This document shows positions 7,595-42,970 of a DNA stretch of 64,000 nucleotides, piece by piece. The stretch is from the IMG/VR virus record IMGVR_UViG_3300032235_000792. The stretch is one strand, 5' to 3'. The notes below the pieces were generated by a model. That model did no database searches. It was given only the letters and a program-made list of their open reading frames with translations, and had not been told where the DNA came from. Made by a program: the position numbers and the translations under genes. The DNA comes from a virus. Position 1 is the stretch's first letter. Every line of letters begins with the position of its first letter.

Positions 7595-7703
7595 ATAGTT
7601 CTTTTAAGTTATCAACAACTTATGCGGTAGGGGCCCCCTAACCGCTTCGCGGGACATTAAAAATGCTTGATAATATTATACTATGTTACAGTATAATAAA
7701 TGC

Positions 7704-8390
7704 ATGGACAACATAGTCAAGACATACTTAGAACAAATGGGTGCAATACCGATGCTTAGCGTGAAGGAAGAGGCGCGCATCGCTAAATTAGCATTTGAAG
7801 GTGATCAAGAAGCTAGGAAGATACTCATAGAGTCTAACTTGAGACTAGTTGTTTCTATCGCTAAGAAATACACCAGCTCAGGCATGGACTTACTAGACCT
7901 CATCCAGGAAGGTAACATCGGCTTGATGAAAGCAGTTGAAAAATTTGAGTATAAGCGCGGACATAAGTTCAGTACTTACGCTACATGGTGGATAAGGCAG
8001 GGAATAACAAGATCTATTGCAGATTCCGGTCGTACCATCAGACTGCCTGTTCATATGGTAGAAACAGTTGGCAAGATATTCCAGTCTATACGTGAAATAA
8101 TATACGACACCGGAAAAGAGCCAAGTGTTGCAGAGTTATCTAAGTATATGGGAATAACTGAAAAGAAATTAAGAGAAGCACTTGATGTAGCCAAGATACC
8201 AGTCTCGCTAGATATGAAGATATATGATGACTCGGCAAGCTTAATGGATAAAGTCCCTGATATAAAATTAGATTATCATTTAGATAGAGTCGATACGGCA
8301 GATCTCTCTAAGAATATAAAGATAATATTGAAGACTCTCACCCCAAGGCAAGAAAAAATACTGAGAATGAAGTTTGGGATTTCAGATTAA
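7704..8390 (+). CDS. RpoD-like sigma-70 factor lacking region 4.2
   Basis: Region 1.2, region 2 ([41 protein letters not shown]), RTIRLPVH and region 3 present; ends at LRMKFGISD; probable leaderless start 6 nt after TATAAT. Confidence 0.92.
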
Positions 8391-8498
8391 CGATTTCTAA
8401 TATCTAACAGAACAGCTATCATCATATATAATCTCATTTGAATCATGTCTAGTTCTTCCTTGTTGTTCCAGAAAATCCTAGTTTTGTTCATCTTGCTC

Positions 8499-8699
8499 CT
8501 AGACATCCAGCAGTATCTCTTCTGCCAGTTTATCCAGTGCCCACTGGACACGTGTTGCAGTTCCAATTGACTTTCCAGTATTTAGAGTTAGTGTCAGGCA
8601 CTTGTCCATGAAAATACATTTGTGGCATTTTGGGACAGCATCCTTGTCTTTGAAACAATCGCCGTCTAATTCTATGATTCTTTCGTATATATCATCCAT
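8499..8699 (-). CDS. small Cys-rich hypothetical protein
   Basis: CxxC...C motif; probable leaderless start MDDIYE 7 nt after TATAAT. Confidence 0.7.
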   Translation of the reverse strand: MDDIYERIIELDGDCFKDKDAVPKCHKCIFMDKCLTLTLNTGKSIGTATRVQWALDKLAEEILLDV

Positions 8700-8765
8700 T
8701 GAATATATTATACGAATTATAAAAACGGGGGGCATTTCGTGGTAAAATATAGGCCTGGAGTTGAT

Positions 8766-9612: not shown

Positions 9613-11127
9613 ATGCCGCAAGCAGCAAGTAAAAAACAATTTAGATTTATGCAGGCAGTCCTGCATGGATATAAAGGACATTCTAGAGGGGTTCCGCCTA
9701 AAAGTGTAGCGGCTAAGTACGTTTCTAATAAGAGTGCACCAGAAAGTAAGAACAATGATAAAGGTGGCACGTGGTCAGAGGATCACCATAAGTTGCATGG
9801 TGAAGGCAAAAAGAAGAAGAAAGAAAAGAAGAAGCTCAAAAAAGCATTTGAGCAGTACTATTCCGGCCGTGGTGTTGGCTTAGTAGTTACTGACGATGAC
9901 GGTCAAATTCTTGTAGGTAAAGGTCATGACGGAACCTGGCAAACTCCAGGCGGACACGTTGAGGCCGGAGAAGATTTCTCAGATGCAGCTAATCGTGAAT
10001 TAAAAGAAGAAGCTGGAATTAGCGCAGGACCGATGCGAGAGATAGGTCATGCTAAGCTAGACGGTAATGACGCTAAGATTTTTCATGTTGAGTCTTTTTC
10101 TGGAAAAGTTAAGGATTCTGAGGAACTTAAAGAACTACATTTCGCTCCACTCCATGATGTCTTAGATTTGGATCTAAGAAGCTGTTCTAGAGCTGGACTG
10201 GAGATGTACGTACAGTCTCATCTTAAAAAATCTACAAAATTAAGTGATTTAGTTATATTAGAAAAATTAAATAAGAATATATTAAGAGGCGCAGATCAGC
10301 GCACTGCTGTGTTAGACGTGAGTCACGGAGAAGCCCTCAGATTAGTTGGCAATGGCTGCTTTAGAATGTTGCAAAGCGCCACTAAAGATATGGGTGACGA
10401 GGATTTTAGAGAGATCAAGATCGACACATATACAATAAGCATACGAAAGCATCTTAACGATGTATATTCTGGGCGCATAAATGACGGACACAAAGTAATT
10501 CATCAATTCACAAACAAGTCGCTTCCTCAACTATGTGCAGATGTTATGTCTGTATTTGAATGGTACTCAGATGAAGACGACAAAGTATTTGATATTCTTG
10601 ACGAAGAAAAATTACCTGACGACGCTATTCACGGCGGACTACATCAGCTTTCTGAAAACTATAAAAAACATAATCTAGCTAATATATATACAGAGATGGA
10701 GAATATTAGAAAAGAGATTAGGAACGGCGTTGCCGTGGATATTCAGCAAGTAGAAAGCAAGATCATGTCTTTGTTTGACAAACTTGAGAATTCTGTTTTA
10801 ACAATAATCGATAAACATAATCAACTAAATCAAGATGCCGGTAAAGAAATCGAGATCATAGAAAGCAAACTATTAGAGCTTCAAGAAAAGATAGAAGAAC
10901 TTAATCGCAAGCCGTCAAGTGTTGATGTAGTGCAATCTAAGAAGATAGATCCTAAAAAGGTTTATGAAAGTCAATATATGTACTTACCTAAACCAAAAAT
11001 TCAATTAAGCTCAGACGGCAATATCTCCATATCTTTTGATAAAGAGTGGACAGACCTAGAAAAATCAAATTTCCTCTGTGACATGAAGGCGAGGATCTTG
11101 AAGAAGGGTCGAGATGATAGACGCTAG
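9613..11127 (+). CDS. multi-domain protein with Nudix hydrolase domain, probably virion-associated
   Basis: Nudix box GGHVEAGEDFSDAANRELKEEAGI; lies among neck genes. Confidence 0.8.
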   Translation: MPQAASKKQFRFMQAVLHGYKGHSRGVPPKSVAAKYVSNKSAPESKNNDKGGTWSEDHHKLHGEGKKKKKEKKKLKKAFEQYYSGRGVGLVVTDDDGQILVGKGHDGTWQTPGGHVEAGEDFSDAANRELKEEAGISAGPMREIGHAKLDGNDAKIFHVESFSGKVKDSEELKELHFAPLHDVLDLDLRSCSRAGLEMYVQSHLKKSTKLSDLVILEKLNKNILRGADQRTAVLDVSHGEALRLVGNGCFRMLQSATKDMGDEDFREIKIDTYTISIRKHLNDVYSGRINDGHKVIHQFTNKSLPQLCADVMSVFEWYSDEDDKVFDILDEEKLPDDAIHGGLHQLSENYKKHNLANIYTEMENIRKEIRNGVAVDIQQVESKIMSLFDKLENSVLTIIDKHNQLNQDAGKEIEIIESKLLELQEKIEELNRKPSSVDVVQSKKIDPKKVYESQYMYLPKPKIQLSSDGNISISFDKEWTDLEKSNFLCDMKARILKKGRDDRR

Positions 11128-12555: not shown

Positions 12556-12793
12556 TGAATTAGAGCTTAAACAAAAAATTAAAGAGATGGAGCAGCAAAA
12601 AAGAAAGGTAGAATCTCCGGCTAATGAGCTAGTTACCTTTGACACTTGGTTTCATAAGAGAAAAGACTCCATACCTAGTCGTCACATGAAGGAAATACTT
12701 TTTGCTGACTTTTCTGCTAGAGGACTGAAGGGGGCTGCAACAATGGAACAGTTCGATAAGGCTCTGGCCCTTTATGGGGTAAAACTTAAGTAA
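12545..12793 (+). CDS. small hypothetical protein preceding sheath
   Basis: 82-aa ORF, AGGAG SD. Confidence 0.7.
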   Translation: MEPSELELKQKIKEMEQQKRKVESPANELVTFDTWFHKRKDSIPSRHMKEILFADFSARGLKGAATMEQFDKALALYGVKLK

Positions 12794-12846
12794 ATATACA
12801 TGTTATAATATAATTAATGCAATGAAACTGATTAGGAGAGACTAAC

Positions 12847-16209: not shown

Positions 16210-16239
16210 AAAACCCTCTTTTCAGAGGGTTTTTTGTTT
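16210..16239 (+). terminator. intrinsic terminator
   Basis: AAAACCCTCT/AGAGGGTTTT plus T tract. Confidence 0.85.
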
Positions 16240-16325
16240 AGCCCCATAAATGATACAATATATTTGGTTACATAAGTAACCGTTAAAAAATTCTAGGTAA
16301 GTGGAACCGAACCACAAGGAGATTT

Positions 16326-17951: not shown

Positions 17952-18009
17952 GTATATAAATTATATTTTGATACTCTTGGTATAATGTCCTTAAATATAA
18001 GGAGCTACA

Positions 18010-34962: not shown

Positions 34963-37092
34963 ATGGCAGAGGCTAAAAATAGAATAGATTCTTTACATGA
35001 TCAAATGCCTGCTATATATAGCACAAGAACCAATCCTAATTGGTCTGCTTTAATTAGTGCGCTAGGCTCATCAGATGATGAAATAATGCAATTAATTCAA
35101 TCAGTGAGAGAACAATTCTTTATTAAAACAGCTAAAAGGCCTTACTTAGATAGATTAGGCACTGCGAACTTAGTACAAAGACCTAGATTTATTGGAATGG
35201 ATGACTCTGCTTTTAGAAAATTTATTCCAGTAGTTGCGTACAGTCCAAAGCAAGTTAAGTTAATATTAGATGAATTACTAGATGTTTTCTTTTTCAAAGA
35301 CTCTACTACATCATTTGCCATGACTAACCAGTTTGAGCCTTTTGTGCTACAAGACGGCTGGGACTTAGAGTACGAGATAGACTCATATTCTAAAGAAAGA
35401 ATAGAATTTAGAGAAGAAGAGTTTGAAGATATTTCTAACGCAAAAGCAAATGAAATTGTTGCTGCAATAAATAGGCAGTCTTCTAATTCATTTGCAATAG
35501 CATTTGAAGACAATTTAACAAAAAAAATAAACATAAGAATATTTACAAACACAGTTGGATCAAAAGGCGCTGTGAAAATAATTGGTGGAAAAGCAAACAT
35601 CGGACTGCAGTTTGACGGATTTAACGAAGAAGCCGGAGCAGGCGGTAACTCAGAATGGGAAATAACAAAGATCGGTGATACCGTAAAAATGAGATACACC
35701 AATGTTGGTAACTCTCCAAAAATAGAGACTTTAAATGTTGGCGATGTAGTTATAATAACTAGACCAGAAAACGAGGGTAGTTTTTTAATTAATGAAGTTA
35801 ACGTAATAGAGAATTATATAGTTTTTACTAATATTTTCGCAACAGAAGAAACTTTTACTCAATCATCAACAGAAGATGTTAGATTTTTTACCCCACTTAA
35901 GAACAATGTGTTTTTAAAAGATAGAAGAGCTGTTGTTTGGGAAGTTAGGCCTGGCGAAATAATAGTTGAAATGCCGCCTTCTCCTCCTATTGTTAAAAGA
36001 AATAGAAAAGGCGCTGCTCATATAAACGGAATTGAATCCAAAGTACAAGCGTACAACAAAACATTAAGTAATATAACCCTAGATAGACCAGACGAGTTCC
36101 CAACAACAGGTGGGCAGTTCTATTTTATCCCTGAAAATGAAATACAGACGTACTTCCCCAACGATGGTGACACTACTTATTTTAAATACAATAGCAGATT
36201 ATGCAGTGATATGCCAATATATACATATGTGTCTAGGGTTGGCAATGTTATTCAGGGTGTGTCGCCTCAATTGCCAGATCCCGCTTCTCTAAATCAGTTT
36301 ATGCTTACATCAGCAAATAGAGACACAAGTAACACAATAACAGTAACCACAACAGTTCCTAATAATTACAGCATTAACGATTTTGCAATTATAGAAAACG
36401 CTATGTTAGGCGCAGGCTCTGGGCCTTCTGTTAATGGAACTTGGAGGATCACCGAGATAGTGAGTTCAACACAATTTAAAGCATATTCTTTTGGTGGATC
36501 TCATGGAGACCGCCAATCTACCGGTGGCACCGTTCGTGTTGAAAAAGCAGCATTCTCTACTAGTGGCGGAATAGTACTGATGCGTTCTTCTAAATTAGAG
36601 CCTAGAAAACTAGGTCCATATATATGGGACCAGGACTCTAACTTTGTGTTATCGTCTTTTACAGGAACGCTGACAGAAGAAATAAATGCAGGATCTACTC
36701 AGAGAAATATATACTTGTCCACAAACAACATACCTAATGAATCTGGTCAATTAATATTTAACTTTGGAACAGAGCGTGAAGAAGGGCCAGTTAGATTCTT
36801 CTTAAAACCAAGCTCTAATGTTATAGCGATAGACCCATCCTATGTGTTTGAAAATACTCATCAAGTTGGAGATTACGTGACGGTAATAAGAAGACAGGGA
36901 GGGATGGTGCTTGGGCCATACGGTGAACAGATAGCACCGTACATAACTGATCCAGCTGCAGCTAGAGAAGTACTAAAAGAGCTAATGCAAAGAGTTAAGT
37001 CCGTAGGTATCTTTATTAATTTCTTGGTGAGGTATCCAGAACAATATTATGCAACTATTGATGTTTATAGAAGCGGAATAGATCCAGGTTAG
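34963..37092 (+). CDS. baseplate wedge protein (gp7/tail-I-like)
   Basis: TAKRPYLDRLG..MDDSAFR motif; follows baseplate J. Confidence 0.65.
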   Translation: MAEAKNRIDSLHDQMPAIYSTRTNPNWSALISALGSSDDEIMQLIQSVREQFFIKTAKRPYLDRLGTANLVQRPRFIGMDDSAFRKFIPVVAYSPKQVKLILDELLDVFFFKDSTTSFAMTNQFEPFVLQDGWDLEYEIDSYSKERIEFREEEFEDISNAKANEIVAAINRQSSNSFAIAFEDNLTKKINIRIFTNTVGSKGAVKIIGGKANIGLQFDGFNEEAGAGGNSEWEITKIGDTVKMRYTNVGNSPKIETLNVGDVVIITRPENEGSFLINEVNVIENYIVFTNIFATEETFTQSSTEDVRFFTPLKNNVFLKDRRAVVWEVRPGEIIVEMPPSPPIVKRNRKGAAHINGIESKVQAYNKTLSNITLDRPDEFPTTGGQFYFIPENEIQTYFPNDGDTTYFKYNSRLCSDMPIYTYVSRVGNVIQGVSPQLPDPASLNQFMLTSANRDTSNTITVTTTVPNNYSINDFAIIENAMLGAGSGPSVNGTWRITEIVSSTQFKAYSFGGSHGDRQSTGGTVRVEKAAFSTSGGIVLMRSSKLEPRKLGPYIWDQDSNFVLSSFTGTLTEEINAGSTQRNIYLSTNNIPNESGQLIFNFGTEREEGPVRFFLKPSSNVIAIDPSYVFENTHQVGDYVTVIRRQGGMVLGPYGEQIAPYITDPAAAREVLKELMQRVKSVGIFINFLVRYPEQYYATIDVYRSGIDPG

Positions 37093-37140
37093 CACGTATT
37101 CTGGTATAATTAAGTATATTTAGAGGCTAAAGGAAGTTGC

Positions 37141-42891: not shown

Positions 42892-42970
42892 ATAGTTAGT
42901 TATACTCATCATTGCTTAACCCAAAAATATGTTAAAATAGTGACATAAAAAATATCTTAAAGGGGATAGC

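Follow-up and report, generated by a model that had tools for sequence, protein, structure and literature searches.

A conserved RpoD-like sigma factor without region 4.2 in a group of uncultured myoviruses, and a candidate partner protein

We analysed a stretch of viral DNA of 64,000 nucleotides (nt) from IMG/VR virus record IMGVR_UViG_3300032235_000792, hereafter the window, and focused on one of its genes, located at positions 7704 to 8390 of the plus strand. Its product resembles the primary bacterial sigma factors SigA and RpoD from region 1.2 to region 4.1 and lacks region 4.2. The gene lies between a block of small genes on the minus strand and a structural module of 50 kilobases (kb) on the plus strand, which includes a tail sheath gene, a baseplate-like gene and a virion protein gene. 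The features of the sigma gene and of its immediate flanks are as follows.

7692..7697, plus strand: -10 hexamer TATAAT, 6 nt 5' of the sigma ATG, without Shine-Dalgarno sequence, conserved in nine relatives
7704..8390, plus strand: sigma gene, SigA/RpoD-like without region 4.2, 228 amino acids followed by TAA (Pfam, alignments and homologues)
7716..7811, plus strand: region 1.2 (Pfam PF00140 Sigma70_r1_2, 30.7 bits for a cut-off of 22)
7824..8033, plus strand: region 2, containing an invariant 13-residue motif of -10 recognition and melting (Pfam PF04542, 81.8 bits)
8061..8261, plus strand: region 3, containing an invariant PVH.VE (Pfam PF04539, 46.9 bits)
8268..8387, plus strand: region 4.1 stub, helices 201-211 and 214-224, ending in KFGISD (predicted model and invariant residues)
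8391..8498, no strand: intergenic DNA 3' of the sigma stop, without region 4.2 remnant, second exon, conserved recoding signal or Rfam family

The open reading frame (ORF) spans 7683..8390 on the plus strand, i.e. 235 amino acids, and is terminated by TAA. The true start is almost certainly the ATG at 7704, which gives a 228-residue product beginning with MDNIVK, because homologues begin with MDN or MSN and a conserved [A/G]GTATAAT stands 6-7 nt upstream of this codon. The arrangement [A/G]GTATAAT-N6/7-ATG without Shine-Dalgarno sequence was kept in nine relatives despite saturated synonymous sites (comparison of window part 7660-7706 with relatives that include L001, L004, L011, L085-L087, L148 and L165). 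As the -10 box is only 6-7 nt away from the ATG and no Shine-Dalgarno sequence is present, the sigma mRNA is probably leaderless. This box does not carry the TG of the structural-gene promoters described below, and it may therefore belong to another temporal class.

Regions 1.2, 2 and 3 all clearly exceeded their Pfam cut-offs, and the same scan of the protein returned no region 4 (PF04545), which is thus incomplete in this protein. Among solved structures the best match was Bacillus subtilis SigA (7ckq_F, E 7e-68), with residues 4-228 of the phage protein aligned to residues 101-326 of the 371 of SigA and the alignment stopping at RFGLDD. The alignment with Escherichia coli sigma70 reaches residue 565 of 613 at query residue 226; according to these alignments the phage protein would terminate at about sigma70 residue 567 of 613, in the loop that precedes the region 4.2 helix-turn-helix. 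The absent part corresponds to this helix-turn-helix and the last helix, i.e. about 45 residues. The predicted model of the sigma protein has a predicted local distance difference test (pLDDT) value of 73, with 71-81 in the stub, and a Foldseek search with this model retrieved SigA and sigma70 chains of holoenzyme structures with a probability of 1.00. In PHROG, the protein matched generic families of RNA polymerase sigma factors, and the RpoD-like collinearity was complete (phrog_351, E 1e-72). Cellular relatives are 45-54 % identical across regions 1.2 to 4.1, and all those retrieved are full length. The closest of them belong to Bacillota, Armatimonadota, Pseudomonadota, Myxococcota and others, and we rejected this comparison as uninformative for host inference.

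No remnant of region 4.2 was found in the six frames of the 64-kb window, either with regular expressions or with a hidden Markov model built from the C-termini of three full-length sigma factors and used with filters off (best E 2). An earlier reading of the window, made from its letters and ORFs alone and hereafter called the sequence-only reading, had claimed a strong primary-sigma match in regions 1.2, 2 and 3, an ORF ending before region 4.2 and no remnant of this region downstream in any frame; Pfam and the SigA and sigma70 alignments agree with the former claims, and both searches of the whole window with the latter.

Homologues were searched over 5.8 billion proteins, and the figures given here refer to the best 120 clusters (59-98 % identity; JGI, ENA, Logan and NCBI; on contigs as long as 166 kb). 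Region 4.2 is missing in 119 of them, the sole match bearing it being a 53 % identical protein at the end of a contig. The exact end, [KR][FYM][GA][ILVM]xD, is found in 111 clusters; the others stop within one or two residues of it or carry seven or eight further, unrelated residues. The sigma copy of the related genome G006 shares this end point as well. Omega, the ratio of non-synonymous to synonymous substitution rates, was 0.02-0.04 for the whole sigma gene and 0.018-0.06 for its last 20 codons where computable, and synonymous divergence was saturated even between copies 94 % identical in amino acids. Constraint on the stub is similar to that on region 2 and far above that on the region 3 linker, and stub residues L212, R215, E217, K218, F224 and the terminal D228 are invariant.

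For a sigma factor cut within domain 4, prior expectation would point to an artefact or to decay, i.e. an assembly error, a recent pseudogene, an intron, or a readthrough by frameshift or stop suppression. This expectation, the only argument for such an explanation, is opposed by the shared end point in more than 100 independent assemblies (JGI, ENA, Logan and NCBI) and by an omega of about 0.03. No second exon or region 4.2 coding sequence was found in any frame of the window, and an Rfam scan of the window returned no family, introns included; no tRNA was found in the window. In the complete relative G001 (165.8 kb), 171 nt separate the sigma stop from the orthologue of the next structural gene, which leaves no space for an intron and a second exon. 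The stop codon itself varies between relatives (TAA, TAG) and the DNA beyond it is unrelated, which argues against recoding. A 125-amino-acid gene immediately 3' of the sigma gene in one relative shows no relation to region 4.2. We consider artefact or decay to be exceedingly improbable. Judged from these comparisons, the truncation is genuine and of old date, and strong purifying selection acts on it in a large, phage-only clade. The sequence-only reading had proposed to check that homologues stop at the same point under purifying selection, and had held that an assembly error or a recent pseudogenisation would overturn it; the homologues do stop in this way, and neither of the two is borne out by the assemblies or by omega.

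The 13-residue motif of region 2 and the PVH.VE of region 3, with the DNA-reading residues of regions 2.3/2.4 and 3.0, are invariant across the clade. Applying the alignment offset, the invariant residues map to Y430, W433, W434, Q437, T440, R441, H455 and E458 of sigma70, the last two corresponding to H117 and E120 of the phage protein. In sigma70, H455 and E458 read the TG of the extended -10 element, and the region 2 residues listed read and melt the -10 element. Candidate promoters of the extended -10 type were identified at the following places of the window.

8740..8748, plus strand: extended -10 TGGTAAAAT, 26 nt before the start of a virion structural gene; the G001 orthologue lies directly after the sigma stop
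12801..12809, plus strand: extended -10 TGTTATAAT, 46 nt before the tail sheath gene; orthologous in G001, G005, G006 and G009
16251..16259, plus strand: extended -10 TGATACAAT, 75 nt before the next gene and preceded by a terminator-like hairpin
17978..17986, plus strand: extended -10 TGGTATAAT, 32 nt before the next gene
37102..37110, plus strand: extended -10 TGGTATAAT, 39 nt before a gene of 1246 amino acids
42930..42938, plus strand: extended -10 TGTTAAAAT, 41 nt before the next gene

These six intergenic sites, 26-75 nt upstream of gene starts, are part of the 17 plus-strand matches to TGNTANAAT in the late module, of whose DNA only 4 % is intergenic (p = 4e-5). The total count of TGNTATAAT in the window does not exceed chance (7 for 5.65 expected), so only the placement is significant. 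Five of the six sites are kept at orthologous places in G001. An alignment of 55 intergenic -10 sites, taken from six related genomes, showed enrichment upstream of the hexamer for G at -14 alone; no enriched column that could represent a fixed-position -35 element was found upstream of -14 in this alignment.

A pentamer TTAAS/TTAGC was observed 7-10 nt upstream of the TG at 12782-12786, 16237-16241, 37088-37092 and 42915-42919, as well as at orthologous late promoters of G001, G005 and G009, sigma-less phages included. Its spacing to the -10 element (11-13 nt) is too short for a canonical -35, and it was not significant in the anchored alignment, its spacing being variable.

A protein that keeps the core-binding regions 2.1, 2.2 and 3.2 together with the region 4.1 helix could also act as a decoy, i.e. 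bind core polymerase without being able to initiate, displace the host sigma factor and shut off host transcription, the more so as E. coli sigma70 is no longer active on -10/-35 promoters once region 4.2 is lost. The invariant residues of the phage protein, however, are those that touch -10 and TG DNA rather than core polymerase, and a decoy would need none of them; their invariance therefore disfavours a mere core-binding decoy. Matching promoters stand before the structural operons of the phage itself, whose sigma-dependent late transcription would likewise be blocked by a decoy. We thus regard the dominant-negative decoy, one of the two roles put forward by the sequence-only reading, as improbable.

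Taken together, we propose, with a probability of about 0.7, that the gene encodes a functional, conserved and -35-independent phage sigma factor. Its reading frame would be built to end in the loop that follows region 4.1, dropping the helix-turn-helix that reads the -35 element; the protein would bind the host core RNA polymerase and initiate at -10/extended -10 promoters (TGnTAnAAT) without -35 contact. As such promoters head the structural operons, the phage would gain its own housekeeping-type sigma factor with no need of region 4.2. An engineered sigma70 derivative (residues 1-553, with region 4.1 kept and region 4.2 deleted) was dead on lacUV5 and retained reduced activity on galP1cons, a promoter of the extended -10 type (PMC7948647).

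Several observations weigh against this proposal. Region 4.2 of E. coli contacts the flap-tip helix of the beta subunit and is needed to suppress pausing in initial transcription (PMC7948647), and the truncated sigma factor alone would therefore be a handicapped initiator unless region 4.2 is replaced. The cellular sigma factors, at most 54 % identical, are scattered over many phyla and do not indicate the host. Furthermore, G005, G007 and G009, which are complete and devoid of an RpoD-like sigma gene, keep orthologous -10/extended -10 promoters, TGTTATAAT before the sheath gene being an example. Another sigma factor, presumably the primary one of the host, can therefore read them, so that the truncated protein is not strictly required and the promoters are no proof of dependence on it. 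The TGnTAnAAT promoter class appears to belong to the whole phage family, and the truncated sigma factor seems to be an addition peculiar to its clade that shares this -10 specificity, rather than the sole reader of these promoters.

For the sequence-only reading, which had seen in the gene a functional -10-only sigma factor redirecting host RNA polymerase, the consequences are mixed. A -35-independent sigma factor is still the best reading, in view of the invariant -10/TG residues and of the TGnTAnAAT elements at operons. The qualification "-10-only" may be incomplete, given the separate protein described below, which is predicted to dock on the region 4.1 stub, and redirection does not follow from promoters that three sigma-less relatives share. 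Escape from an inhibitor directed against domain 4, also suggested there, is a pure inference.

A search of G001 for Sigma70_r4 gave a single match, restricted to model positions 24-50, in an ORF of 116 amino acids located 86 kb from the sigma gene. The family of this small protein comprises 181 clusters at 90 % identity, with 146 representatives in an exhaustive profile search. Pfam region 4 matches in the family always cover positions 24-50 (18-50 in one member), and some pass the curated cut-off (25-27 bits). The protein carries four invariant cysteines (C12, C24, C52 and C64; hereafter Cys4) and an invariant helix-turn-helix, PSDKEIAHMN..S..TVK. In the sigma4 alignment, the truncated sigma factor stops at column 42 and homology of the small protein starts at column 46 (RTLEEVG). 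The similarity is weak by hhalign against sigma4 (P = 4e-4, probability 34 %) and by Pfam (17-27 bits); the Atlas places the protein in viral clusters automatically named 'putative RNA polymerase sigma-70 region 4' (feature score 0.97, structural template-modelling score 0.70). A profile search of the PDB with the small protein retrieved weak, generic helix-turn-helix matches only (FliA, E 0.82), and its AF2 monomer has low confidence (pLDDT 64).

The genes of the sigma factor and of the small protein co-occur on G001, G006 and ERZ28593313 scaffold_13, 76-86 kb apart, and every long sigma-bearing contig examined also encodes the small protein; contigs that agree in length (166,313 and 152,046 bp) are a further sign of co-occurrence. 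Its gene lies invariably between those of the portal and of the prohead protease; no consistent promoter was found upstream of it, and no homologue was found within the 64-kb window or in INPHARED. Three of five near-complete related genomes encode the small protein in the absence of an RpoD-like sigma factor, and it must therefore have a function of its own.

The region 4.1 stub might also serve as the seat of this partner, which would complete domain 4 in trans, the sigma factor being then the large subunit; we advance this tentatively, and it refines the proposal of a -35-independent sigma factor rather than excluding it. The helix-turn-helix of the partner would pack on the region 4.1 helix and rebuild domain 4 on the beta flap; efficient initiation would be restored and an upstream element may be read. 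In its strict form, where the truncated sigma factor works only together with the 116-residue protein, the odds stand somewhat against such a pairing. More doubtful by a shade is the wider proposal that domain 4 is split between its second and third helices over two genes, the small protein (with zinc or iron-sulfur at its cysteines) being a metal- or redox-sensitive, shared and exchangeable 'region 4.2 cassette' that gates phage late transcription and that the wider phage family may also pair with a protein reduced to sigma region 2.

Several observations count in favour of an obligate pair, namely the complementary halves (end at column 42, start at column 46), the presence of both genes on G001, G006 and ERZ28593313 scaffold_13, and the requirement of region 4.2 for efficient initial transcription in E. 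coli. In addition, complex prediction for residues 183-229 of the sigma protein P0065 with the small protein P0121 gave a score of 0.66, for 0.02 in the best of three controls. Among solved complexes, 58 of 80 attain this mark, compared with 2 of 110 mismatched pairs. At least 78 % of the contacts are common to the runs, with a partner pLDDT of at least 72. The predicted contacts join sigma residues 209-229 to residues 82, 85-86, 93, 96-97 and 100-101 of the partner, in the helix-turn-helix, and to its residues 54-70; this part of the stub is placed against both helices of the helix-turn-helix and the helix before them. This model supports binding without demonstrating it: as each of the two pieces looks like one half of the solved sigma4 fold, the score may come from the memory that the predictor has of this fold, as tends to happen with halves of a split domain.

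Other observations are unfavourable to an obligate pair. The small protein is more widespread than the sigma factor, its monomer model is poor, the two genes are distant and in different modules, and the arginines of the sigma4.2 recognition helix are not conserved in it. No fused (Rosetta-stone) form was found in the searches, and in particular no fusion to sigma regions 2-3 among the 146 clusters. A 504-residue homologue (P0241, on a 12.7-kb JGI contig) is no fusion, and results from the insertion of an intein with homing-endonuclease domains (PF05204, PF14528), located exactly at the invariant Cys52 (LPG|C...HN|C). Inteins habitually mark functionally critical sites, and this insertion counts in favour of the pair. 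On a 152-kb Logan contig (P0180), a gene of 108 amino acids of the Fe-S_biosyn family (PF01521, A-type carrier) lies about 650 nt downstream of the small gene, a hint that an iron-sulfur cluster, and not zinc, might occupy the Cys4 site.

The same phages also encode a family of proteins with sigma region 2 only (25-39 bits to PF04542), which could be the real partner of the small protein. Free-standing versions with a proline-rich tail were found in G001 (159 amino acids; L173:1282-1761, minus strand) and G006 (123 amino acids; L172:1396-1767, minus strand). The sigma2 domain is C-terminal in larger proteins of G005 (499 amino acids; L169:1396-2895, minus strand) and G009 (about 600 amino acids; L170:118-1905, plus strand), both of which lack the RpoD-like sigma factor. 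The small protein may therefore have another partner and a history older than that of the truncated sigma factor.

Compared with the group 1-2 factors B. subtilis SigA and E. coli RpoD and RpoS, the phage protein has the same collinear architecture and identical -10/TG residues (SigA 101-326, sigma70 354-565), but no region 1.1, non-conserved region, region 4.2 helix-turn-helix or C-terminal helix. Earlier sigma70 truncations lacking region 4.2 are reportedly those of Kumar et al. 1993. The laboratory construct sigma70 1-553 has the same architecture up to region 4.1 (PMC7948647), whereas the phage factor is natural, has been conserved in over 100 lineages and retains the full helix pair of region 4.1, i.e. 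about 14 more residues.

With gp55 and gp33 of phage T4, the candidate pair would share a sigma factor confined to a -10-like element and a beta-flap/sigma4 role carried by a separate small protein. T4 gp55, however, is highly diverged and reduced to a sigma2-like part, gp33 is devoid of a sigma4.2-like helix-turn-helix, and the sliding clamp is needed; no sequence relation to gp55 or gp33 was seen, the phage sigma architecture covering regions 1.2-4.1 and not sigma2 only. SigO-RsoA of B. subtilis, Sig7-Sig8 of Tn916 and gp33-gp34 of SPO1 distribute sigma function, with -10 and -35 recognition, over two polypeptides. In the SigO-RsoA type, the division falls between sigma2 and sigma4 and the two genes are neighbours, whereas in the candidate pair the break would fall inside domain 4, the genes are about 80 kb apart and the partner has an additional Cys4 module. 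The 116-residue protein falls among the stand-alone phage 'sigma-70 region 4' clusters of the Atlas, whose names are automatic.

As far as the searches reach, no description of the Cys12/24/52/64 module, or of a link between it and a truncated sigma factor, was found in the literature. No natural phage sigma factor lacking region 4.2 was found there either, with a partial coverage that makes this no proof of novelty. Among the cultured phages of INPHARED, no close copy of the sigma protein and no near-identical DNA were found. Myxococcus phage Mx1, nearest by its tail sheath (33 % identity), was considered as a model and rejected, since it lacks a Cys4/sigma4.2-like gene and gave no more than a weak sigma2-like match.

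Region 4.2 is seen as a constant part of primary sigma factors: it reads the -35 element, is the target of many activators and anti-sigma factors and aids early RNA synthesis. Its removal has hitherto been studied in laboratory truncations, and is here kept over the long term in a large group of uncultured myoviruses. This group offers a natural system for asking how far -10 and TG contacts alone can carry a bacterial polymerase, what a lone helix pair of region 4.1 does, and whether the function of region 4.2 can be provided in trans. Should the Cys4 protein indeed complete the domain, this would be the first sigma factor split within a domain and not between domains, and the metal centre would be a possible control point of it. 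For annotation, genes of this kind should not be labelled pseudogene or partial.

Among the neighbours of the sigma gene, the following lies closest on its 3' side.

8499..8699 (ORF 8499..8735), minus strand: convergent gene of 66 amino acids with four cysteines, C-X7-9-C-X2-C-X5-C, conserved in L001, L010 and L011

The sequence-only reading had placed a converging gene about 110 bp after the sigma gene; the distance is 108 nt past the sigma stop, and the gene is real, being kept in close relatives. It is confined to those with at least 78 % sigma identity and was not found at the equivalent place in G001. The protein has invariant cysteines and a conserved tail, TR.QWAL..LA.E. Its cysteine spacing recalls the iron-sulfur proteins of the WhiB type, but we rejected this identity (Pfam E 0.1, no family in the Atlas), which reduces the idea of an actinobacterial host, drawn from this likeness, to a weak hint. 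We regard the gene as a neighbour of the candidate sigma system.

Within the structural module, a protein of 504 amino acids (9613-11127, plus strand) includes a domain of the Nudix hydrolases (phrog_1198, E 1.5e-15), and its gene adjoins the virion protein gene in every relative examined. A protein family starting with MEK[IV].YL.NGQW.L, 44 to 519 amino acids long, borders the sigma gene on either side in relatives (L001:2548-3138, L001:4193-5752, L004:9324-9956 and L004:10727-10861), with no member at the window locus. Finally, a GC-rich inverted repeat, gcggtaggggccccctaaccgc, occupies positions 7627-7655 of the window, in the divergent intergenic region 5' of the sigma gene; it is kept in L011 and L148, and L087 has a GC-rich counterpart at the equivalent spot.

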